From: a virus
DNA: 64,000 nt
Reading direction: 5' to 3' (one strand)
Virus record (IMG/VR): IMGVR_UViG_3300029822_000004
Span: 10,241 to 74,240 of that record
Both the position numbers and the translations under genes were made by a program. Positions 27,008 to 63,815 of this stretch are shown piece after piece (within the stretch, counting starts at the first letter, position 1; each line of letters begins with the position of its first letter). The notes under the pieces are model-generated. The model made no database searches. It worked only from the letters and a program-made list of their open reading frames with translations, and was not told where the DNA came from.

Positions 27008-27015
27008 TAACTGGT

Positions 27016-27045
27016 GGTGGCCGGTGTAGTGATATGCCGGCCACC
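27016..27045 (+). terminator. GC-rich hairpin after SSB gene (terminator or processing site)
   Basis: GGTGGCCGG...CCGGCCACC; U tract is weak. Confidence 0.5.
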
Positions 27046-27052
27046 TGAATTT

Positions 27053-27302
27053 GATGTTATAGAAAGGTGGGCTTAGAAGTAGCCATCCTATAATGAGCAG
27101 GAAGAACTACCATTGGCGCTAAAAGGTCACTACTATCTAGGACAGCATATAATCTCTAGAAAGAGGATAAGGGCTGTCTGCAAGGTGGCTATGACTGATG
27201 TGCTGATGGGAAAATAGGAGTAAGTGGAGTTAAAGACTTCCACCCAGGTTAGATAATACTATGGGGTAGTTCCTCTTGGTGTAAAAACACATCTATAACA
27301 TC
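27053..27302 (+). ncRNA. Structured RNA resembling 23S rRNA GTPase-associated centre with a large insertion
   Basis: 11-bp terminal helix GATGTTATAGA/TCTATAACATC; GGTGGGCTTAGAAGTAGCCATCC matches H43; GTGTAAAAACAC hairpin at the H44 position. Confidence 0.75.
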
Positions 27303-27345
27303 TTTTATTCATGCAGGCATCAAACAGCATCATAAATCGCACACT

Positions 27346-27558
27346 ATGATCACACCGAGTAACGTACTGTTGAACTGGATTAACGAGTTGAGTGCAAGGC
27401 GTGATGCACTGATACTCGCAACAGAAAAGATCAGCGACAACGAAAAGCGTATGGAGTCAATGGATGAGGCATATAACATAGGAGGGCAGATAGCCAGAGC
27501 AAAGGACATGCTCGCAGACATAAACAGAGAAATAACAAACCCTAGAGGCTATCGATAG
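27346..27558 (+). CDS. Hypothetical protein
   Basis: 70 aa; helical. Confidence 0.5.
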   Translation: MITPSNVLLNWINELSARRDALILATEKISDNEKRMESMDEAYNIGGQIARAKDMLADINREITNPRGYR

Positions 27559-27567
27559 GAGTAAACC

Positions 27568-27795
27568 ATGGCAAGCCTAAACATAGCAATGACCACCATC
27601 ACCTTCAGGCGCACTAGGCAGGTCAAGGAGTACGAAAGCGCCACCATTGAGATTTCCACCACCGTACCCAAGCACCCAGAAGACGTTTCTGCCGATATTG
27701 AAAAGCTCGAACTGATTGTGGATGCGGAGCTGGACGACTATATCAATAAGCATAAACCAAAAGACATGAGTTGGGAGGTGAATCTAGACGAATGA
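27568..27795 (+). CDS. Hypothetical phage protein
   Basis: AGGAG RBS; RTRQVKEYESATIE. Confidence 0.65.
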   Translation: MASLNIAMTTITFRRTRQVKEYESATIEISTTVPKHPEDVSADIEKLELIVDAELDDYINKHKPKDMSWEVNLDE

Positions 27796-28097
27796 GGATG
27801 CTCAACAAGCTAGCTGAAGCCAACAAGAAGCTGATAGAGATCACGGCAAGCCCCCTAGACGCCAAGATGACGGTAGAGCAAGTGCAGGAAATTGCCGACT
27901 ACAACATGGCCTACCGGTCGTTTTATAGAAAATCAGGACTCACCGAGAAGGCGTGGAGTAAAATCCTCGGCGTCCCTCAGTGCAAGCATCGGGAATATGA
28001 GACTTTCACAACGAAAGTACCTGCTCACACGCTAAATAGGGCTGGAAGAATCGACAGACTCATGAGATCAGTAAGACGAAGGATGAAAGACAAATGA
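27792..28097 (+). CDS. HTH-like protein
   Basis: RKSGLTEKAWSKILGV....REYE. Confidence 0.55.
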   Translation: MRMLNKLAEANKKLIEITASPLDAKMTVEQVQEIADYNMAYRSFYRKSGLTEKAWSKILGVPQCKHREYETFTTKVPAHTLNRAGRIDRLMRSVRRRMKDK

Positions 28098-28987
28098 CAC
28101 AAACATTATTTCCTGAAAACGTGGCACCGAACGCAACCAAGCTACTTGTAGACAGCAAAAACGTGGCCTATCATGCTTATTCGTGGGCGCTCAAAGCCTA
28201 CGACGGCGAAGATGTCCAAGCGGCGTACTTTGTCTGCTTCTGGGCCAAGATCAAGTTCGCCGCCCGCCGCTGTCGCACTACCCGCATTGCCTTTTGCTGG
28301 GACAGCGACAACTCCAAGCGAACGGCTCTCTATCCTGCGTACAAAGCACAGCGGAAGGTTGCCGATGACCCCGAACGCGCAGAGATGTTCAAGACTTTCG
28401 ACCACACCCGCGATGTCGTATTGCCTGCTCTGGGATTCAAGAACAGCTACCTGCTGGACGGCTTTGAGGCCGATGACATTATTGCCAAATTGGTTGAACA
28501 GAACAAAGATAAACGCGTGCCACTGGTTATCTATTCCACCGACAGCGACTTGTATCAGCTTCTCGGCAACAACGTCTACATGATCAATGCGCGGATGGCA
28601 AGTGACTATGGACGCCTCAAGCCCTTCACTGCGGCATCCATGCGTGAAAAGTACGGTGTGACTCCTGCTGATTGGCCTATGGTAAAGGCTATCGCCGGCT
28701 GCAACTCCGATAACATTCCTGGTGTTCGGGGCATTGGTGAAAAGATCGCCTCTGCGTATATTCGTGGTGAGGCAAAGCCCATGGCCGTTGCAAGGATTGA
28801 AGCTAGCATGGACACAATCAAGGAAACGCTGCGGCTAGTCAAGTTGCCATTCGAGGGTACGCCTGATCTTGAATTCGTGCCGGATGCCCTGAACTACGAT
28901 GCGTTCATGCGGATGTCTGCCGAAATTGGCGCCATTAGCCTGAGTGATGATGGGTACTGGAAGCGTTTCTTCAATGGAGAGGTGTAA
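28094..28987 (+). CDS. 5'-3' exonuclease / flap endonuclease (PolI N-domain-like)
   Basis: LLVDS, YPAYKAQR, FEADDII, STDSDLYQL, SDNIPGVRGIGEK. Confidence 0.93.
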   Translation: MTQTLFPENVAPNATKLLVDSKNVAYHAYSWALKAYDGEDVQAAYFVCFWAKIKFAARRCRTTRIAFCWDSDNSKRTALYPAYKAQRKVADDPERAEMFKTFDHTRDVVLPALGFKNSYLLDGFEADDIIAKLVEQNKDKRVPLVIYSTDSDLYQLLGNNVYMINARMASDYGRLKPFTAASMREKYGVTPADWPMVKAIAGCNSDNIPGVRGIGEKIASAYIRGEAKPMAVARIEASMDTIKETLRLVKLPFEGTPDLEFVPDALNYDAFMRMSAEIGAISLSDDGYWKRFFNGEV

Positions 28988-28989
28988 CG

Positions 28990-29451
28990 ATGGCCGGCGT
29001 CTTTAGCATATTCATCCCATGCACACCAAAGGCCGTCCAGTCGGTGCGGTCTTTCGTGGCTGGCAAGAAAATTATGCACTACCAACCCAAGGACGTGGTT
29101 GACTGGAAGACGTACATCCAAGTAAGTATCCTCAACGCCCTTACACCCGCATGGACGCCACTTGAATGCCCCGTGTCCGTTGATGTGGTCTATATATTCT
29201 CTCCACGGAAGAGCGAAAAAAAGACCATCCTTGCGGAAATTGCTGACGGCGCGTGGTACTACAAGACGACAAGGCCCGACATGGACAATCTTGGCAAGGG
29301 CCTCTATGATGCATGTACTGGCGTGCTGTGGGCTGATGACTCGCAGATCGCAGAGAAACACGAGGTGAAAGTCTACGGAAAGAAAGAAGGCATAATGATA
29401 TGCGTAAACAAACTGCCAACGAGCATACAAAGCTCTACCAGTATCTCCTGA
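28990..29451 (+). CDS. rusA: RusA-family Holliday junction resolvase
   Basis: RPDMDNLGKGLYDA...WADDSQI. Confidence 0.9.
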   Translation: MAGVFSIFIPCTPKAVQSVRSFVAGKKIMHYQPKDVVDWKTYIQVSILNALTPAWTPLECPVSVDVVYIFSPRKSEKKTILAEIADGAWYYKTTRPDMDNLGKGLYDACTGVLWADDSQIAEKHEVKVYGKKEGIMICVNKLPTSIQSSTSIS

Positions 29452-29639
29452 AGAACCTGATTGATCCTACTGCGGTAGCCAAGCTGCTTCGATGTTCGCG
29501 ACAGACCATGCGTGTGTACACGTTGCAAGGCCCGCCGAGCTATCTGGTGGCATGCGCAATAGCCTATGTACTTGGTTGCACGCCAGAGGACATCTACAGC
29601 AAAGAGGAAAGCAGAAAGGCCAGAAGGAATGCTCTCTAA
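29400..29639 (+). CDS. HTH regulator
   Basis: VAKLLRCSRQTM...IAYVLGCTPEDIY. Confidence 0.6.
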   Translation: MRKQTANEHTKLYQYLLKNLIDPTAVAKLLRCSRQTMRVYTLQGPPSYLVACAIAYVLGCTPEDIYSKEESRKARRNAL

Positions 29640-30828
29640 AATTACATTGAAGAACATCCAAGCCCACGAGGATTTGACCTTGGAGTTTGGGCCGGGCCTC
29701 AATGTAATCCACGGCAGTACCGATAGTGGAAAGACTGCGGTACTGCGTGGTTTATTGTGGTCTGCACTGAATGATGGCAATGGCGACAAGTTGCTCAAAA
29801 ACAACAACGGATCAAAAGAGTGCTCAGTTGAATTGACGCTTGATGGCCACACTGTACGACGCTCATGGTCGAAGTCTGCCAACACGTATTCAATGGACGG
29901 TGTGAACTTCTCAGCCTTCAGGACATCGGTTCCTGCCGCAATCGCTGAAGTAGTGAACATGGACGCAATCAATGTCCAAAGGCGGCGTGATGTGCCCTTT
30001 ATGGTCTACTGGAAAGCCACCGAAAACGCCAACCAGTTCAGCCAGATGCTCGACATTGATGAAATCGACCGTTCTATCAATGCTATCAACAAAGACGTGC
30101 GAGAAGGCCAGCAGGCGGTAAACACCATTGAGGACAATCTACTGCTATCCAAACAAAAACTGGATGCCCTCGGGTGGGTTGATGGGGCCATGGAGGAGTT
30201 CAAGCATCTGGAAACGCTGAATGCCACCATAGACGACCACAAGGCAAAACTACAGGTTTATACACGTTTATACGACGATTACCGTATAAATGCCAACGCC
30301 GCAGAGGCCATCCAAGATTCGATGGCGGCCCTTGAAGATGTCACCGCCATCATAGAAGCGTATAACAACGTTGTACAGCTATCAAAGGACAAACAATGGC
30401 TATCAAAGACGTGTGAAGTGTATACCGCAGAATACCGACGTTGTACTGCGCTTAAATCTGCCGAAGATGGTTACACTGAGCTTGTAACTCTGCTTTCCGA
30501 TGTTACCAGAGCAAAGAATATAGCGGTAGAACGCGCGGAGCTCAACACGCTATACAAAGGCCATTTAGCCGCCGAGACCAACGTTACCAAGTATTCATAT
30601 GGCAAGGACAGCTTGACGCAAATTATGGCTGTTTGTGTGCTCGCTGAGGGCCTTCCAGAGCTACGAAAGAGCGTCACTTCACTACAGGCGGCACACAGGC
30701 AGTACCAGACACAAAAACAACACTACATCAACGCAAAACAGCTACAAGAACGCACAAAGGCACAGTTCGATGCTGCAATGCCGGATGTGTGCCCATTGTG
30801 CGGCTCAGAAGGATGCAAACACCAATGA
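29629..30828 (+). CDS. SbcC/Rad50-like ATPase, N-terminal half
   Basis: ITLKNIQAH, GLNVIHGSTDSGKT (Walker A), coiled coil, terminal CPLCG zinc hook. Confidence 0.85.
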   Translation: MLSKITLKNIQAHEDLTLEFGPGLNVIHGSTDSGKTAVLRGLLWSALNDGNGDKLLKNNNGSKECSVELTLDGHTVRRSWSKSANTYSMDGVNFSAFRTSVPAAIAEVVNMDAINVQRRRDVPFMVYWKATENANQFSQMLDIDEIDRSINAINKDVREGQQAVNTIEDNLLLSKQKLDALGWVDGAMEEFKHLETLNATIDDHKAKLQVYTRLYDDYRINANAAEAIQDSMAALEDVTAIIEAYNNVVQLSKDKQWLSKTCEVYTAEYRRCTALKSAEDGYTELVTLLSDVTRAKNIAVERAELNTLYKGHLAAETNVTKYSYGKDSLTQIMAVCVLAEGLPELRKSVTSLQAAHRQYQTQKQHYINAKQLQERTKAQFDAAMPDVCPLCGSEGCKHQ

Positions 30829-31721
30829 AACTACTCTGCATAGCCGATGTCCACTTGAAGGAAAAGAAACCCGAATGCCGCCTTGCCGAAGAGGATTGGC
30901 TACAGGTCATTGAACAAAAGATGGCCTGCATTGGTGAAATCGCTTCGGATGCCAATGTAGACGCCGTGGTAATAGCCGGTGATGTATTTGATGGCTGGCG
31001 TGGTGTATCATTCGAGTTCTTCAATCGCTGTGTGGTGTGGCTGAATTACATCAAAGCCAACACCAAGGACAAGAAGATATACACCATCGCAGGAAACCAT
31101 GATCTTCCTGAGCATCTCTATGAGCAGATTAGCAGGACGCCCTATCAAGCGATGTGTGTATCTGGCGTATTCACAGACATCTATGCCGATGATACCTTGC
31201 CCTTTACCTGCATGGCCTACACCGATCAGAGAATTACAGCGTCAAAAGACATTCTGGTTGCACACAAGGGCCTCTATCTGGAAAACAAGATATTCCCAGG
31301 CGTAAATGAAAATGCGCAGGTGGGGAACTTTGTTAAGAACTGCATACCGCCCAACGTCCGATTGGTCATAGCGGGCGACTTTCACAAACCGTTTACAACC
31401 ACCATCGGAAGTACACTCGTTGTCAACTGCGGGAGCATCTTCAGACTCCGTGCAGACCAATGCGAGTTCCAGCCTGTCGTACATATTGTCGATACCGATA
31501 TGATGACAGTCGTTAGCAAAAAGCTACCATTGTCAAATCCAATCCGTAGGGACTACATCGATGACCGCAATGACCGCAAAGAAGAGCTGAACGAAATCAT
31601 TGGCAACATCGATGGCGACTTCGAGATTACACTGAACTACCGAGACAATTTCAAAAAGTTAACAGAGGCACTACCAAACCGATCCGTCATCAACTCCATC
31701 TTTGAAAGGACACTGCAATGA
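30825..31721 (+). CDS. SbcD/Mre11-like metallophosphoesterase nuclease
   Basis: IADVH, AGDVFD, AGNHD, VAHK, AGDFH, NCGS. Confidence 0.9.
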   Translation: MKLLCIADVHLKEKKPECRLAEEDWLQVIEQKMACIGEIASDANVDAVVIAGDVFDGWRGVSFEFFNRCVVWLNYIKANTKDKKIYTIAGNHDLPEHLYEQISRTPYQAMCVSGVFTDIYADDTLPFTCMAYTDQRITASKDILVAHKGLYLENKIFPGVNENAQVGNFVKNCIPPNVRLVIAGDFHKPFTTTIGSTLVVNCGSIFRLRADQCEFQPVVHIVDTDMMTVVSKKLPLSNPIRRDYIDDRNDRKEELNEIIGNIDGDFEITLNYRDNFKKLTEALPNRSVINSIFERTLQ

Positions 31722-31969
31722 TTGACACCAACGAACTACTGACCCTCAAGAAAAAAGCAGAAGCAGCCGTAACCGAATACAATCAGGCGGTGGGGCGATT
31801 GTCTGCCATCAAGAACCAGATTAAAGAAGCGGGGTTCAACTCCATACTCGAAGTTGAGGCAGAGATTTCACGCCTGTCAGAACTTATCCAACAAACAGAA
31901 GCAGATGTCGAATCCCGCCTGAATGAGTGGAAGGCCAAATATTCGTCACTTATCAACCGGAGCTTGTAA
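31718..31969 (+). CDS. Small coiled-coil protein
   Basis: Heptad pattern; lies between SbcD and the SbcC C-terminal half. Confidence 0.65.
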   Translation: MIDTNELLTLKKKAEAAVTEYNQAVGRLSAIKNQIKEAGFNSILEVEAEISRLSELIQQTEADVESRLNEWKAKYSSLINRSL

Positions 31970-32571
31970 TGGACATCGATACATGTAAACAATCCTTAAT
32001 CGATGTGTACTATCGCAGAAAAGGCTATCTTGATGACATAGAGAGAGATACAAAACGCCTTGAAACGACGAAGGTCAATCTTGAAAATCTCCTATTGACA
32101 CAAGGACTCATTCAAGAAGCATCGCAAATGACCCTTGAGTGTATCAGCATTCGCATTAACAACATCGTCACAAAGGCGTTGGCTGCCGTATTGCCAGAGC
32201 CGTATACATTCGAGTTGAGCTTCCGCATCACTTATGGGAAGTTAAGTACGGATATGCGGTTAAAAAAGGACGGCAGGCTGTATGCACTTACGGATAACGT
32301 GGGTGATGGCGTTGTTGACATTGTGGCCTTGGCATTGCGTGTGGCCATATTGTGCCTAGACAAGCGCAAGTTACGGCGTTTGCTGGTGCTTGACGAGCCT
32401 GTAGGGGCCTTGAGCGTAGACTACCAGCCTTTAGCCGGCAAAATGCTTGAGCACCTGTCTAAGGCCCTCAATATGCAAATCATCATGGTGGCGGCGCACG
32501 GTAGCAACTACGAATTTACGGACGCCGAGGTCTTTGACTCAAGTAATTTCAGAAAAAAAATAAAAAATTGA
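31969..32571 (+). CDS. SbcC/Rad50-like ATPase, C-terminal half
   Basis: VGDGVVDIVALALR (signature-like), LLVLDEP (Walker B), QIIMVAAH (H-loop). Confidence 0.82.
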   Translation: MDIDTCKQSLIDVYYRRKGYLDDIERDTKRLETTKVNLENLLLTQGLIQEASQMTLECISIRINNIVTKALAAVLPEPYTFELSFRITYGKLSTDMRLKKDGRLYALTDNVGDGVVDIVALALRVAILCLDKRKLRRLLVLDEPVGALSVDYQPLAGKMLEHLSKALNMQIIMVAAHGSNYEFTDAEVFDSSNFRKKIKN

Positions 32572-32600
32572 AGAGTTCGTGTGAACTTTTGCTTTTCCAT

Positions 32601-32610
32601 TGCTATAGTA
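32601..32610 (+). promoter_or_regulatory. TGCTATAGTA -10 motif upstream of the large ncRNA candidate
   Basis: Same -10 word as the four other promoters; -35 is weaker. Confidence 0.55.
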
Positions 32611-32615
32611 TACTT

Positions 32616-33380
32616 GTCGGAGACCTAGAGGTTAAGACCGAACTCCGGGATTACACGACAGCGGCAACGTAGCGCTGTTCACACTGATTAAGGGGTATGC
32701 TGGCGGGCTAGGTGGCGTCTCAAAAGTGCATATTCCCGAGATACTGGTAGGCCAGTGGCGTGGTTCCCCAGACGAACCGGGTGACAACCTGACAGTTAGT
32801 TTGAGCATACTTAAAAGCTCCGTGATTGCTCTTTTACATCTTGGTTTCGAGTAAGGAGTCTGAGTAGGAGGCGAAAGCTAACCTACAGTAGCCAAATCAG
32901 AGAAAAATTGCATGCGAAGTTCGGACGGTTCGCTACAATCGGGCATGCAGCCAATGGTCAATAACGTAAGGGTATGCGCAGCCTAAAGCCAGCAATGGCC
33001 ATGGCATAAGTTGGTAGGGCCGCCAACAAGATGCATACAGCGGGTGAGAACCCCGCCAACAGGGAGCCACACAATTCAGCTCAACCAGTTGACACTTCAA
33101 GGTAACGACAGCCTGACGATGAAACAAGTGTTGGCGTAGCGATTCCAGCGCCGGACACGACCAAGATGTAAAAGCAAGCAACCGTTAATGCGGTTTTGCC
33201 TCCTGCGTGAAAACGGGATAGACTGTAGAGGTATGGTCTATCGGTGATGTGGGTGTCTCTTTCATGGTGCAACCACGCCATGTCTGCCACACAATGAAAG
33301 CGCTTGGAAGGACGTTAGGCAAAACTAGATTTTAGTCCACCAAGGGATTATTGTGCCTTTTATGGTTTTTAATCTTGGTT
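32616..33380 (+). ncRNA. Large, highly structured non-coding RNA candidate (boundaries approximate)
   Basis: About 940 bp with no credible ORF; 15-bp long-range helix 32831-32845/33160-33174; 9-bp helix 33193-33201/33317-33325; many local hairpins with GAAA/GCAA loops. Confidence 0.75.
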
Positions 33381-33510
33381 TCGCGGACAGGTAACGCAAC
33401 AAAAGAGCCTCCAATTAGCTAACCATTATACACTTCTTTCTTTTAAGAGGTGTTTACGTTTTCAGGCTTTTCAAGCCTTAAACAAAAACACAAAAACAGG
33501 TATTATCGGC

Positions 33511-34305
33511 ATGAAGTATCTCCATCCGGGTTCACTTGGTGACATAATTTACTCAATGCCCTTCATGTTAAGCAACGAGGGTATATTTGAACCAGAAGAG
33601 CTACCAAATGCCGACATACATTTGCTTTTGGATACTACTGGCTATGGCAATGCCCGATATGACGTTTTTCCGATTGTGACATCCATGGCGGCATTTTTAA
33701 ATACACAGCCATGCATCAAAAGTGTCAATGCCCAAAGAAGTTTCAATAACGACGAAAAGAGAACCTGTATTAACCTCGGGGCTTTTCGTGATGGCCGTGT
33801 ACAAATTGGCAAGGGCGATTGCATGCTCAGGTACAGGTATTTGAAAAGAATGCCCATGTACTACAATTTGGAAGCGCCGTGGCTCGAAGTACCCAAAGAG
33901 GATAAGTACAACCATCTGCAAAACAAGATCGTCGTATTCAGGAGCCACCGTTACCGCAACCGTCGTATGAGTTATGCACCATTGAAGCCCTACGCCGACA
34001 TAATGGTGTTTATAGGCTTCGAGAATGAATACCAGGACTTTTGTACCAGAACAGGCATAAAGCCCCAATTTCAGCCTATTACGGGCATTACTCAAGCCGC
34101 CGCAATGATCCGCAATGCCGCATTTGTCGTAGGGAACCAAACGTGTTTCTTTGCGCTGGCTGAAGGCATGAAGGCCCCACGGATACTTGAAATGAGTAGC
34201 GATCTGCCAGACGTAATTCCAAAGGGCGACTGGTCTTTTGATGCCGTGGATGACACTGATCTTGGTAACTGCCTGAAGCTCTGCGTGGCGACGTTCTTAC
34301 ACTAA
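33511..34305 (+). CDS. GT9-like (ADP-heptose transferase fold) glycosyltransferase
   Basis: HPGSLGDIIYSMP; VFIGFENEY; AAMIRNAAFVVGNQT..ALAEGMKAPRILE. Confidence 0.7.
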   Translation: MKYLHPGSLGDIIYSMPFMLSNEGIFEPEELPNADIHLLLDTTGYGNARYDVFPIVTSMAAFLNTQPCIKSVNAQRSFNNDEKRTCINLGAFRDGRVQIGKGDCMLRYRYLKRMPMYYNLEAPWLEVPKEDKYNHLQNKIVVFRSHRYRNRRMSYAPLKPYADIMVFIGFENEYQDFCTRTGIKPQFQPITGITQAAAMIRNAAFVVGNQTCFFALAEGMKAPRILEMSSDLPDVIPKGDWSFDAVDDTDLGNCLKLCVATFLH

Positions 34306-35235
34306 TGCCTTTGTAAGAATCTCAGTGTATGCGGCTTTAGTAATCGCCTTGTGTTCAGTCAGTTCTACATGCCGATTGAATAACGACTGCTGGTTGATTT
34401 GATCTAGTTGGCTTGGATTGAATGACAGGAAGCCATCTACTGCACCAAGGCGGAAGTCGTCCACCAATGTACACAAAGAAGGTATGGCCATTGATGCAGC
34501 TAGCCCACAACCATGTATTCTTGGCGACACAACAAAGCCATAGCGCCAATACAGTTCAACCAAGTCATGCCAATCATAACAGTAATGCACGGTGGCTGTA
34601 GGGAAGCGTTTTTTGGCCAAAGGAAGCTCATCACAGCGGTGACAGACGACATCAAAGGCCATGCGGTCAGCAAAGTAGTCAAAGCACATATCCGCTACCA
34701 TGGCATTCTTTTTACCGATGCCCTGCCAGCCCTCTTCCTTGTCATACACAAAGAGCGCCTTGTCAACTACCAAATCTGCACGTTGTCTATCAGCTACAAA
34801 CAATGCTGGACAGGGCATACACTTCACGCTGCGGCCAAAGAATGACGAGTATCTCTCAATGAGGTCTTCTTGGCGCACGGTGATGAGCTTGGCGGAGTTG
34901 GCCATCTCAGATACTGTCGTGAAGTCAATGTCGCCAGCACCAAGAATAAGCAACGGAATCTTGTTGTTGTTCACGATTTCGTAGAACGTCCGCATACGTT
35001 GTGTGAAGGTCTCGGGCGTTCCTGCTATAACCGCCAAATCGATTATGGAGGGATCGTAGTCACCAAAAACGCTGTCATCTCGCTGTACGCTCTTACGGTT
35101 TATGCTCGGATGACAATTATACAGTATGGCGTTGTGTTCACCGATTGTGGATTTGATCAGATTTATGGTGCCACGAAGAATCAGCTCGTCGCCTATATTC
35201 CATCCGCGTGTGGTCTTGTACAGCACGGTCTTCAA
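34297..35235 (-). CDS. Polysaccharide pyruvyl transferase family protein
   Basis: GWNIGDELI, LILGAG, LITVRQ, MPCPALF, VVSPRIHG...AIP; TTG start overlaps upstream stop. Confidence 0.78.
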   Translation of the reverse strand: MKTVLYKTTRGWNIGDELILRGTINLIKSTIGEHNAILYNCHPSINRKSVQRDDSVFGDYDPSIIDLAVIAGTPETFTQRMRTFYEIVNNNKIPLLILGAGDIDFTTVSEMANSAKLITVRQEDLIERYSSFFGRSVKCMPCPALFVADRQRADLVVDKALFVYDKEEGWQGIGKKNAMVADMCFDYFADRMAFDVVCHRCDELPLAKKRFPTATVHYCYDWHDLVELYWRYGFVVSPRIHGCGLAASMAIPSLCTLVDDFRLGAVDGFLSFNPSQLDQINQQSLFNRHVELTEHKAITKAAYTEILTKALV

Positions 35236-35567
35236 TCTTCTTTCCAGTCCTCTCGTTGGCGGGCGTTGGCCCTGTCTGCGGCCTTGACTAAATCGGCCTT
35301 TACTTCCGTGAGAGTGCAATTCATGTTCGATAGCTGCGTCTCAATCGCCGTGAGCCTGACTTTGATATCGAGTTGCATCATGGAGGCCCGTCGTTCTTCT
35401 TCAACGTCAGCAGCGTTCAGGCGCAAATAGCCGCTAATGCCAGCAGTCACCAATCCAGCATAAGCGAGCCACAGCCACAAAATATGACTCGCGATGTTGG
35501 TAATCTGGTCGCGTGGTGCTGGCGGCGGTGGTGATATCGTCCCTGGGTGCATTGTACCTCGTTCCAT
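35232..35567 (-). CDS. Membrane protein with one TM and a coiled coil (holin-like position)
   Basis: ILWLWLAYAGLVTAGISGYL followed by heptads. Confidence 0.5.
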   Translation of the reverse strand: MERGTMHPGTISPPPPAPRDQITNIASHILWLWLAYAGLVTAGISGYLRLNAADVEEERRASMMQLDIKVRLTAIETQLSNMNCTLTEVKADLVKAADRANARQREDWKED

Positions 35568-35692
35568 ATAGATTTATCCATGTTTTATTGGTCTTGGCGT
35601 CATCTGTAACATACCATAAAACAACGCCAAAGCAACACCGTATGCTATATTATGCACAGACACACCTTTAAAAGATTGAAAGGATTCAAGAC

Positions 35693-36289
35693 ATGGCTAT
35701 CGCTGTAGTATCATTGAAGACACCGGAGATTGATAGTTACGCAGTATATACCACGGAAACAAACCGGCTGTATTGTCAAAAGCACAATCTGCAATATTTC
35801 TGTTATGGCCACACGCTAGACAACACCAAAACTCCCCACTGGTCTAAGCTGCTTGCACTCAAAAATCACATTATGGATTATGACTGGCTGATGTGGATAG
35901 ATGCTGATGCTGCATTTGCCAACCACACTACGACCATTGAATCCATTATTGAAAACCACTCAGCGATGATATTAATGAGCAAAGGGCGGCTGTATGGCTG
36001 GAATTCTGGCGTGTTTTTATTGCGTGGTGGACAAGAGAGCGAATCTTGGCTTGATTTTGTATTTGGCTTACATGGTACTATTTCTGGGCCATTCTATGAA
36101 CAGGATGCCGTTGTGCACAGCTTTGGTCTTCCACTATATAAAGACAAAGTGATTGAGGTACCAAAGCGACTAATCAATGTATCAATAAAAGATTACACGG
36201 CTGGGGATTTTATAGTTCACGCGCACGGTACTGACAACAAGAAAAGAGAGTCGTTCTTTAAGTCGCTGCGTCAGTCTTTGCCATCATAG
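35693..36289 (+). CDS. GT34 (GMA12/MNN10-like) glycosyltransferase
   Basis: YCQKHNL..WSKL..DWLMWIDADA..WNSGVFLLR..YEQDA..GDFIVH. Confidence 0.85.
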   Translation: MAIAVVSLKTPEIDSYAVYTTETNRLYCQKHNLQYFCYGHTLDNTKTPHWSKLLALKNHIMDYDWLMWIDADAAFANHTTTIESIIENHSAMILMSKGRLYGWNSGVFLLRGGQESESWLDFVFGLHGTISGPFYEQDAVVHSFGLPLYKDKVIEVPKRLINVSIKDYTAGDFIVHAHGTDNKKRESFFKSLRQSLPS

Positions 36290-63452: not shown

Positions 63453-63529
63453 TAGTAGCGGGGATGGGATTTGAACCCACGACCTACAGAATATGAATCT
63501 GCCGGGCTACCTGACTGCCCTACCCCGCA
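63453..63529 (-). tRNA. tRNA-Met(CAT), initiator-like acceptor
   Basis: Cloverleaf TGCGGGG..GGGCAGTCAGGTAGCCC..GCAGA-TTCATAT-TCTGT..GTGGGTTCAAATCCCAT-CCCCGCT-ACTA. Confidence 0.85.
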
Positions 63530-63699
63530 AAAGCAAGTGGTCTGGAATTTAGGCTTACTTGTAGAGGCCCCAGACCCGTGTATCCATATAATAACACACA
63601 AAAGAGAAAAAGCAAAGTAGAGAGAAAGAAAAAGAGGACAGAGAGGAACAAAACAAAGATAAAGAGACAGTAAAGGGGCGGTAAAGGGGCAAGAGGGGC

Positions 63700-63815
63700 G
63701 ATAAGAGAGGGATAAGAGAGGGATAAGAGAGGGATAAGAGAGGGATAAGAGAGGGATAAGAGAGGGATAAGAGAGGGATAAGAGAGGGATAAGAGAGGGA
63801 TAAGAGAGGGATAAG
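63700..63815. repeat. Tandem repeat of GATAAGAGAGG, 10 perfect copies plus a partial
   Basis: Exact 11-bp periodicity from 63700 in a purine-rich non-coding tract. Confidence 0.95.

Follow-up and report, generated by a model that had tools for sequence, protein, structure and literature searches.

An abundant, sequence-constrained transcript of an uncultured digester and landfill phage as a candidate large non-coding RNA of a new class

Introduction

To our knowledge, large non-coding RNAs (ncRNAs) of bacteria or phages have so far been assigned to no more than a handful of classes. Here, we analyse a stretch (positions 32616–33380) and its surroundings in a 64,000-nucleotide piece of viral DNA, which we call the window; it comprises bases 10241–74240 of the 74,240-bp IMG/VR virus record IMGVR_UViG_3300029822_000004, a record that is complete according to CheckV. 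The source is an uncultured phage of ~74 kb from digesters and landfills. The stretch, which occurs once in the record, lies on the plus strand between the last gene of an SbcCD-like module and a gene for a GT9 (heptosyltransferase)-like protein. An earlier note, made from the sequence alone, had proposed that it encodes an ornate ncRNA of ~750 nt with its own promoter, either a divergent member of the GOLLD or ROOL RNAs or a new class of large RNA. The reading best supported by our analysis is a stand-alone, abundant and sequence-constrained phage ncRNA of a new class and of narrow distribution.

Results

A gap without conserved reading frames behind a consensus promoter

The interval 32572–33510 contains no open reading frame (ORF) of 85 aa or more and, bar one artefact of the overlap rule, is the largest gap in a greedy ORF map of the 74-kb record. 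The gap described in the earlier note is real. The smaller ORFs within it comprise three minus-strand frames (58, 82 and 69 aa) and a pair of plus-strand frames, each of 42 aa. None of these five matched a PHROG family. The 82-aa ORF had no homologue among 5.8 billion proteins, and a 42-aa plus-strand ORF gave only two marginal matches, both within long unrelated proteins. The only relative compared was L035, a 12.7-kb metagenome contig that is 94.3% identical to the window over 27566–34305. In L035, non-triplet insertions or deletions disrupt two of the three largest ORFs: a 2-nt deletion (32687–88) shifts the frame of the 58-aa ORF and a 1-nt insertion after 33061 that of the 82-aa ORF. No conserved coding signal emerged from the comparison with L035 and the family searches.

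Just 5' of the stretch, TGCTATAGTA at 32601 is a member of a promoter consensus, cTTGAAAAac..gtgTGCTATAGTAtt, of which the 74-kb genome contains seven plus-strand copies and one minus-strand copy. Five plus-strand copies lie in the window (5917, 12208, 17483, 25424 and 32601) and the remaining three outside it (G000 ~5487 and ~9265 on the plus strand, ~3754 on the minus strand). It seems that transcription units on the plus strand of the phage start with members of this family of eight near-identical promoters. The −35 element (GTGAAC) of the copy at 32601 is a weaker one. Where the other plus-strand copies have a clear ORF, it starts 43–200 nt downstream; behind the copy at 32601 the next ORF of at least 60 aa starts 892 nt downstream. 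Separately, the minus-strand copy is followed by ~766 nt that also lack an ORF of at least 60 aa.

In L035, the extended −10 element is kept as TGTTATAGT, and between the −10 element and the start site none of 18 positions is changed (0%), compared with seven of 32 (22%) in the spacer 32572–32603. The promoter motif was not found in distant relatives. A reading of the motif as a promoter of the Bacteroidota type was dropped, since Shine–Dalgarno sites precede most genes.

An abundant transcript that starts at the promoter

The stretch occurs almost word for word in 20 of the 24 public runs listed, from 16 studies and from landfill, wastewater, bioreactor and digester samples; six of the runs are metatranscriptomes. 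We compared three RNA runs from three studies (X16, X18 and X19) and one DNA run (X2) over 30000–36000. Cover was read from assembled contigs, so that uncovered parts of the flanks and differences in depth serve as hints only.

In every RNA run, one contig starts just 3' of the promoter, 7–15 nt past the expected start site (Table 1). The word depth of these three contigs is 12–25 times that of the flanking phage contigs and likewise 12–25 times that over the upstream ATPase gene, ratios that are rough because each contig has one mean depth and the runs were chosen for holding the stretch. The DNA contig of X2 (record 20) runs uninterrupted over the start site, from 31617 to 33581, at a depth of 9.9, like its neighbours. 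Because three studies share a start where the DNA continues, and because of the 12–25-fold step, we take this to be a real and abundant transcript rather than carried-over DNA. The contigs carry no strand information, and we assign the plus strand from the promoter and the folding. The promoter and the non-coding transcript proposed in the earlier note are both supported. The 3' end lies beyond the 33380 given there: conservation extends to ~33428 and the RNA contigs to 33501 or beyond. Termination is incomplete, as the contigs end at three different places (33501, 33764 and 33929).

Sequence constraint and distribution

The body of the RNA (32622–33428, plus strand, ~807 nt) differs from L035 at 16 of 807 positions, in ~11 events (2.0%). 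Divergence is 22% in the spacer on its 5' side and 8.5% (7 of 82) in the 3' tail, 33429–33510. Third codon positions of the four neighbouring genes differ by 6.5–15.1%, and first and second positions of the same genes by 1.0–4.8%; at the local third-position rate of ~7%, we would expect ~56 changes in the body by our own arithmetic. That divergence rises so sharply on either side of the body speaks for constraint acting on the RNA itself, and the conservation boundary suggests that the functional body ends near 33428.

The four runs show ~10 differences in 32622–33428, and the contigs of the RNA runs carry essentially the second haplotype of L035. Parts of the body 175–268 nt long have no listed change in the four runs and are almost unchanged in L035. 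The 5' domain is the most conserved part, and a variable patch (32900–32930) lies within the central region.

Homologues were sought in GenBank phages, IMG/VR, 802 bacterial genomes, related records and 80 loci, and the negative results that follow hold for these sources. A blastn search of GenBank phages in distant mode gave no match to the stretch. Patterns of 18–39 nt gave zero, zero and eight matches in IMG/VR viral contigs, the eight sharing the pattern alone, and a 22-mer scan of metagenome contigs returned a single locus, L035. The 401 genomes from the order of a Paludibacteraceae metagenome-assembled genome (MAG) gave no match. A marginal match (E = 5.2e-4) in 401 genomes from the order of an Acutalibacteraceae MAG was rejected, as it lies inside a 525-aa ORF. 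BLAST against five related virus records gave a best E value of 0.1. A covariance model of the 5' 181 nt (R1) matched only the window and L035 over 26 sources, with no match in four related virus records and one MAG.

At ten viral loci and on two MAG contigs that encode relatives of the upstream ATPase with 53–69% identity, the syntenic place shows neither a gap nor the RNA, and the 80 loci with GT9-like homologues show no similarity to the ncRNA. Closer relatives of the neighbouring genes are on record as P0001, P0002 and P0071–P0073, among them an ATPase with 84% identity (P0002) and a GT9-like protein with 79% identity (P0073). An ORF-poor region of 2.6 kb in the related record G002 (L037:11262–13870) gave no Rfam match and no similarity to the ncRNA. 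This region is rich in repeats and iterons, with several kinds of direct repeat including an 18-nt unit present about seven times, and looks like an origin or partition region. As far as the sources searched show, the ncRNA is specific to one narrow phage lineage, which is widespread both geographically and ecologically in engineered anaerobic systems.

Predicted fold

The motifs listed in the earlier note were all located at the place given or at most 1 nt away, and its perfect 15-bp helix (32831–45/33160–74) was recovered independently by a repeat finder. By our own arithmetic, ~4e-4 perfect 15-nt inverted repeats are expected in 900 nt. The fold of the whole stretch has a z score of −2.77 on the plus strand, where none of 20 shuffles was as good, and of 0.02 on the minus strand. 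The central domain together with its closing helix reaches −3.76, beyond all 40 control windows of 355 nt from the same phage (mean −0.08, standard deviation 0.97, minimum −2.55).

A second long-range helix is predicted outside the first. The repeat finder located two elements absent from the earlier note, the 18-nt direct repeat described below and a perfect 10-nt complement (32756–65/33271–80, I4), which pair probabilities extend to 19 bp. Its duplex energy is −31.2 kcal/mol on the plus strand and −26.3 kcal/mol on the minus strand, the G.U pairs making the plus strand 5 kcal/mol stronger. The fold signal rests mainly on the perfect 15-bp helix and this 19-bp long-range helix. The two helices and the hairpins at 33217–42 and 33290–33355 are the robust elements of the prediction, and all are unchanged in L035. 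By our own arithmetic again, 900 nt should contain by chance alone pairings as long as the 9-bp pair GTTTTGCCT/AGGCAAAAC and the hairpins of 5–7 bp.

A 12-nt box, ATCTTGGTTTCG, occurs twice in the stretch. Allowing at most one mismatch, the window holds three matches compared with 0.26 expected, and none of 100 shuffles reached three. The 12-nt sequence is the core of an 18-nt box, the first copy of which (32832–32849) overlaps the 5' strand of the 15-bp helix. The 3' strand of that helix, which we call the anti-box, can also pair with the second copy (duplex with 33363–79, −17.0 kcal/mol). Such a pairing might allow a switch or a contact between molecules.

Searches against known RNA families

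No match in the stretch reached the gathering score of an Rfam 15 model. With cmscan run on both strands of 32400–33600 with permissive filters and E values up to 10, only three chance-level matches appeared, and GOLLD, ROOL, OLE, HEARO, raiA, group I and II introns, RNase P, tmRNA and 6S were not among them; ARAGORN found no tmRNA. The proposal of a divergent GOLLD or ROOL is therefore not supported, and the earlier note's other proposal, a new class of large RNA, fits the findings.

Three further candidates were rejected. The match to the cow-rumen-1 RNA model (E = 0.76) reached 17.1 bits, where the gathering score is 53.4. Its tail pattern was found in six viral contigs, all inside long open frames, with nothing else shared and no Rfam match, so that we regard this match as chance. 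A sponge for a CsrA-type protein is not suggested by the GGA count (11 compared with 16.3 expected), nor an antisense regulator of the phage's own genes by complementarity, which does not exceed 13–14 nt. We found no description of this ncRNA in the literature searched.

Table 1. Coordinates of the features at the locus and of the RNA contigs that cover it (positions of the window).
Feature	Position	Strand	Evidence or remark
Upstream gene, C-terminal half of an SbcC-like ATPase (214 aa), last of the preceding operon	31927–32571	+	PHROG ATPase, E = 4.5e-19
Promoter: −35-like GTGAAC 32581–86, 17-nt spacer, extended −10 TGCTATAGT 32601–09	32581–32609	+	Consensus copy
Transcript 5' end zone	32617–32632	+	RNA contig starts 32625, 32628, 32632
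5' domain, most conserved part	32620–32744	+	Four runs: no differences listed 32632–32899; L035: one cluster 32685–90
19-bp long-range helix (8 + 11 bp, 2-nt bulge, three G.U), predicted 5' strand	32745–32765	+	Pair probabilities 0.96–0.97
Perfect 15-bp helix, 5' strand	32831–32845	+	Pair probability 0.97, −27.1 kcal/mol; overlaps box copy 1
Central multi-hairpin region within the 15-bp helix; GAAA-capped hairpin 32864–86, GCAA-capped hairpin 32988–99 (predicted)	32846–33159	+	
Anti-box: 3' strand of the 15-bp helix	33160–33176	+	Inverted repeats I1, I2; can also pair with box copy 2
11-bp hairpin, two G.U pairs (predicted)	33217–33242	+	Pair probability 0.98; unchanged in L035
19-bp long-range helix, predicted 3' strand	33271–33289	+	Unchanged in L035
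Extended hairpin, 8 + 5 + 4 bp (predicted)	33290–33355	+	Pair probabilities 0.96–0.99; unchanged in L035
Box copy 2, 18 nt, 89% identical to copy 1	33366–33383	+	Direct repeat D1; unchanged in L035
Terminator-like hairpin with T-rich tail (33430–33463), then second hairpin (33464–78)	33430–33478	+	Fast-evolving 3' tail
Downstream gene, GT9 (heptosyltransferase)-like, 264 aa	33511–34305	+	AlphaFold (AF2) model and Foldseek; partly co-transcribed with the ncRNA
RNA contig, X16	32632–33764		Preceded by adapter-like letters; word depth 52.5; other phage contigs 2.1–4.4
RNA contig, X18	32628–33929		Word depth 223.7; 5.3-kb contig over 30000–32418 18.9; 32440–32609 4.5
RNA contig, X19	32625–33501		Word depth 60; other phage contig 3.5 (one, 192 nt)

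Genome setting and neighbouring genes

The genome resembles that of a tailed phage, with early and replication genes on the plus strand up to ~34.3 kb and a long block of minus-strand genes that includes an ORF of 1815 aa. Shine–Dalgarno-like sites precede most genes, and the portal-like protein is only 22–26% identical to those of cultured phages. The only tRNA in the window is a tRNA-Met (63455–63529), ~30 kb from the ncRNA. Beside it, an 11-nt unit (AAGAGAGGGAT) is repeated 11.3 times with 98% identity (63691–63815), an array that may represent iterons or an origin. Elsewhere in the window, a 15-nt unit is repeated 21.9 times at 71–398, and a second ORF-poor gap of 338 nt lies at 27008–27345; 217 nt following it (27349–27565) are absent from L035, where the alignment jumps from 27348 to 27566.

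The SbcCD-like module 5' of the stretch consists of the N-terminal part of an AAA_23 ATPase, a metallophosphoesterase, an 83-aa ORF and the C-terminal part of the ATPase. The SbcC-like ATPase is apparently split (29566–32571) into genes of 420 aa (N-terminal, AAA_23) and 214 aa (C-terminal), with the SbcD-like phosphoesterase and the 83-aa ORF between the two halves. The 214-aa part on its own has 70 homologues, each of ~200 aa.

The 264-aa protein encoded downstream has no Pfam or PHROG match. Its AlphaFold model (pLDDT 76, pTM 0.79) has GT9 heptosyltransferases (3tov, WaaC and WaaF) as its top Foldseek matches. The homology between the window and L035 stops abruptly at the stop codon of this gene (34305; L035:12113–12704), the bin from 34300 having 70 differences, so that the downstream set of glycan-modifying genes is seemingly exchangeable between close relatives.

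Discussion

On balance, and with little more than even confidence, we favour a stand-alone plus-strand ncRNA of ~840–880 nt. It would be transcribed from one of eight consensus extended −10 promoters of the sigma-70 type, with a 5' end at ~32617–32625, and would accumulate far above the neighbouring phage mRNAs. In the proposed architecture, the nested 19-bp (32745–65/33271–89) and 15-bp helices would enclose a multi-hairpin core, and the two 18-nt box copies may compete for the one anti-box. Termination at the hairpins around 33430–33480 is probably leaky, a minority of transcripts running into the GT9-like gene. During infection, it would most likely be a stable, structured molecule that acts in trans. 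By analogy, its possible roles include those of a scaffold, an assembly RNA or a sequestering RNA, as is now suspected for GOLLD and ROOL.

Several observations weigh against this reading. The first group concerns the fold. Compared with dinucleotide shuffles, the whole stretch folds better than chance, on the plus strand only, whereas the domain interiors do not stand out. Without the 15-bp helix, the central interior 32846–33159 has a plus-strand z score of −1.67, which 8 of 100 shuffles equalled or bettered, and a minus-strand score of +0.93. The 3' part 33175–33430 scores −0.90, and the 5' 211 nt (32620–32830), which are not thermodynamically unusual, score +1.19. Among ~11 variant events, drawn from one relative (L035), one second haplotype and four runs, none is compensatory. 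The change 32900 G>A and the clusters at 32919–30 and 32685–90 weaken helices of the minimum-energy model, although by our own reading the 32919–30 cluster lengthens a local hairpin (32914–33); the variants at 33061, 33070, 33189 and 33253 fall in predicted loops or junctions. Since ~4 of ~13 changed positions lie in high-probability helices, which make up about one third of the body, the helices appear to enjoy no protection. The structure is thus supported in part: the two long-range helices exceed chance, and the detailed "ornate" fold described in the earlier note is unproven, natural variants not being compensatory.

The second group concerns the transcript and its evolution. The contig depths are means over preselected runs, strand cannot be read from the contigs, and two of the three RNA contigs run 250–420 nt into the downstream gene. 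The coding flank 30900–32200 is also only ~2% diverged from L035, so that part of the low divergence could stem from recent recombination (mosaicism). In L035, the 69-aa minus-strand ORF (33081–33290) is intact, with a change in one residue. The chief weakness lies in the narrow distribution known so far, which for now blocks a covariation analysis.

The main rival to a stand-alone RNA, which we judge unlikely, is a long cis-acting 5' leader (~890 nt) of the glycosyltransferase unit. Such a leader would control read-through into the GT9-like gene, or its translation, by attenuation or an antitermination-type mechanism, and termination or processing of the leader would yield the abundant species. 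The gene that follows on this strand, from 33511, lacks a convincing promoter. Between it and the body stands a terminator-like hairpin with a T-rich tail, and the RNA contigs of X16 and X18 extend into it. Moreover, the other plus-strand promoter copies with a clear ORF head protein-coding units, and the ncRNA and the gene stay together in L035, where homology to the window ends with this gene.

However, the length would be 4–20 times that of the other leaders of this phage, and no riboswitch, T-box or leader family of Rfam matched. The X19 contig does not reach past 33501 and leaves the gene uncovered, and the depth in X18 falls from 224 to 17.5 before the gene ends. At 60 usable loci with distant homologues, the ORF-free distance before the gene never exceeds 555 nt (median ~53 nt); 80 loci had been fetched, of which 15 were dropped because the match fell short of the N-terminus and five because less than 1200 nt lay upstream. 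These homologues are only 23–35% identical, so that the leader could be one specific to this lineage.

Improbable, in our view, is a neutral spacer or decayed gene that is transcribed by chance and owes its low divergence to recent recombination between strains rather than to selection. Divergence along the phage is indeed mosaic, as the ~2% in 30900–32200 illustrates, the sources searched hold no homologue outside one narrow lineage, and many shuffles fold as well as the domain interiors. Against this stand the steps from 22% just upstream to 2.0% inside the body and 8.5% just downstream, and the stretches of 175–268 nt that are unchanged in four runs and nearly so in L035. A consensus promoter with very high RNA levels in three studies and a perfect 15-bp long-range helix that chance would not lead one to expect are likewise hard to reconcile with a neutral spacer.

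Smaller still, to our minds, is the chance that the transcript encodes at least one small protein, whether as an mRNA or with a second function as RNA; the candidates are the 42-aa plus-strand and the 69-aa minus-strand ORF. The 42-aa ORF (32726–32854) has AGGTGG 10 nt upstream, a stop-free frame of 73 codons is located within the most conserved part, and the 69-aa ORF is kept open in L035. Yet the segment of the 42-aa ORF has zero nucleotide changes in L035 and none listed in the four runs, and the surrounding coding sequence is less conserved. As third codon positions of nearby genes change by 6.5–15%, the constraint on the 42-aa ORF seems to act at the nucleotide level. The PHROG and protein searches gave no family or homologue, and the candidate ORFs occupy less than one quarter of the conserved body.

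Least probable of all is a replication-related transcript that would activate an origin or serve as a primer, much as ColE1 RNA II, which is of similar size and folding. The long inverted repeats would suit it, as would the position immediately behind the SbcCD-like genes, where the plus-strand block for replication and recombination ends, but the stretch has no iterons or tandem repeats (the arrays lie at 71–398 and 63691–63815), is not AT-rich and shows no sharp skew feature, the G.U pairs favour structure at the RNA level on one strand, and a primer needs no high steady-state abundance.

We return to the stand-alone ncRNA and its significance. Tentatively, and with less confidence than in the ncRNA itself, we suggest that it founds a new class of giant phage RNAs: a stable molecule of ~850 nt with nested helices, in which the box and anti-box would switch or link molecules, and which would act in trans. 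If so, the target in trans would be the host or the phage's own glycosylation programme, and the RNA would be directly accessible for structural work, being abundant in digester and landfill metatranscriptomes worldwide. An unrelated RNA of ~850 nt would enlarge the small set of large ncRNAs. With its own promoter, its constraint and its very high natural expression in several independent communities, it offers a new subject for the study of RNA structure and of phage RNA function. Furthermore, its position before a heptosyltransferase-like gene leads to a testable hypothesis, that of a link to phage-directed glycosylation.

Comparison with known systems

EAR, the leaders of LoaP type and JUMPStart/ops are long 5' leaders of polysaccharide or glycosylation operons that control read-through. 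The present RNA resembles them in lying directly 5' of a glycosyltransferase gene with which it is partly co-transcribed, and in the terminator-like hairpin between the two. It differs in being several times longer and in matching no Rfam leader family, and the GT9-like gene has distant homologues that are not preceded by long gaps.

ROOL is ~580 nt long, a size that the present RNA exceeds. Pseudoknots and kissing loops are not established here, the ROOL model of Rfam gave no match and the present RNA is not near tRNAs. GOLLD and ROOL occur in phages or prophages, in many cases close to tRNA islands, and form RNA-only nanocages; cryo-electron microscopy of GOLLD, ROOL and OLE revealed RNA-only cages and dimers, with function left open (Kretsch et al., bioRxiv 10.1101/2024.12.08.627333). 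The same work reports GOLLD to be often longer than 800 nt and to rise during lysis, and ROOL is expected to need no protein partner of its own. The present RNA shares with ROOL that it is a large phage ncRNA whose function is open, and would be comparable in the last respect also.

The differences from GOLLD are that the present RNA does not match the GOLLD model of Rfam even at E values up to 10, lies ~30 kb from the only tRNA rather than at a tRNA island (a typical but not strictly defining location of GOLLD), belongs to one narrow phage lineage and has a predicted structure that lacks covariation support. On the other hand, both RNAs are phage-encoded, non-coding, ~800 nt or more in length and of open function. 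GNRA-capped hairpins and long-range helices are predicted for the present RNA, and the reported rise of GOLLD during lysis has a counterpart in the very high abundance of the present RNA in metatranscriptomes.

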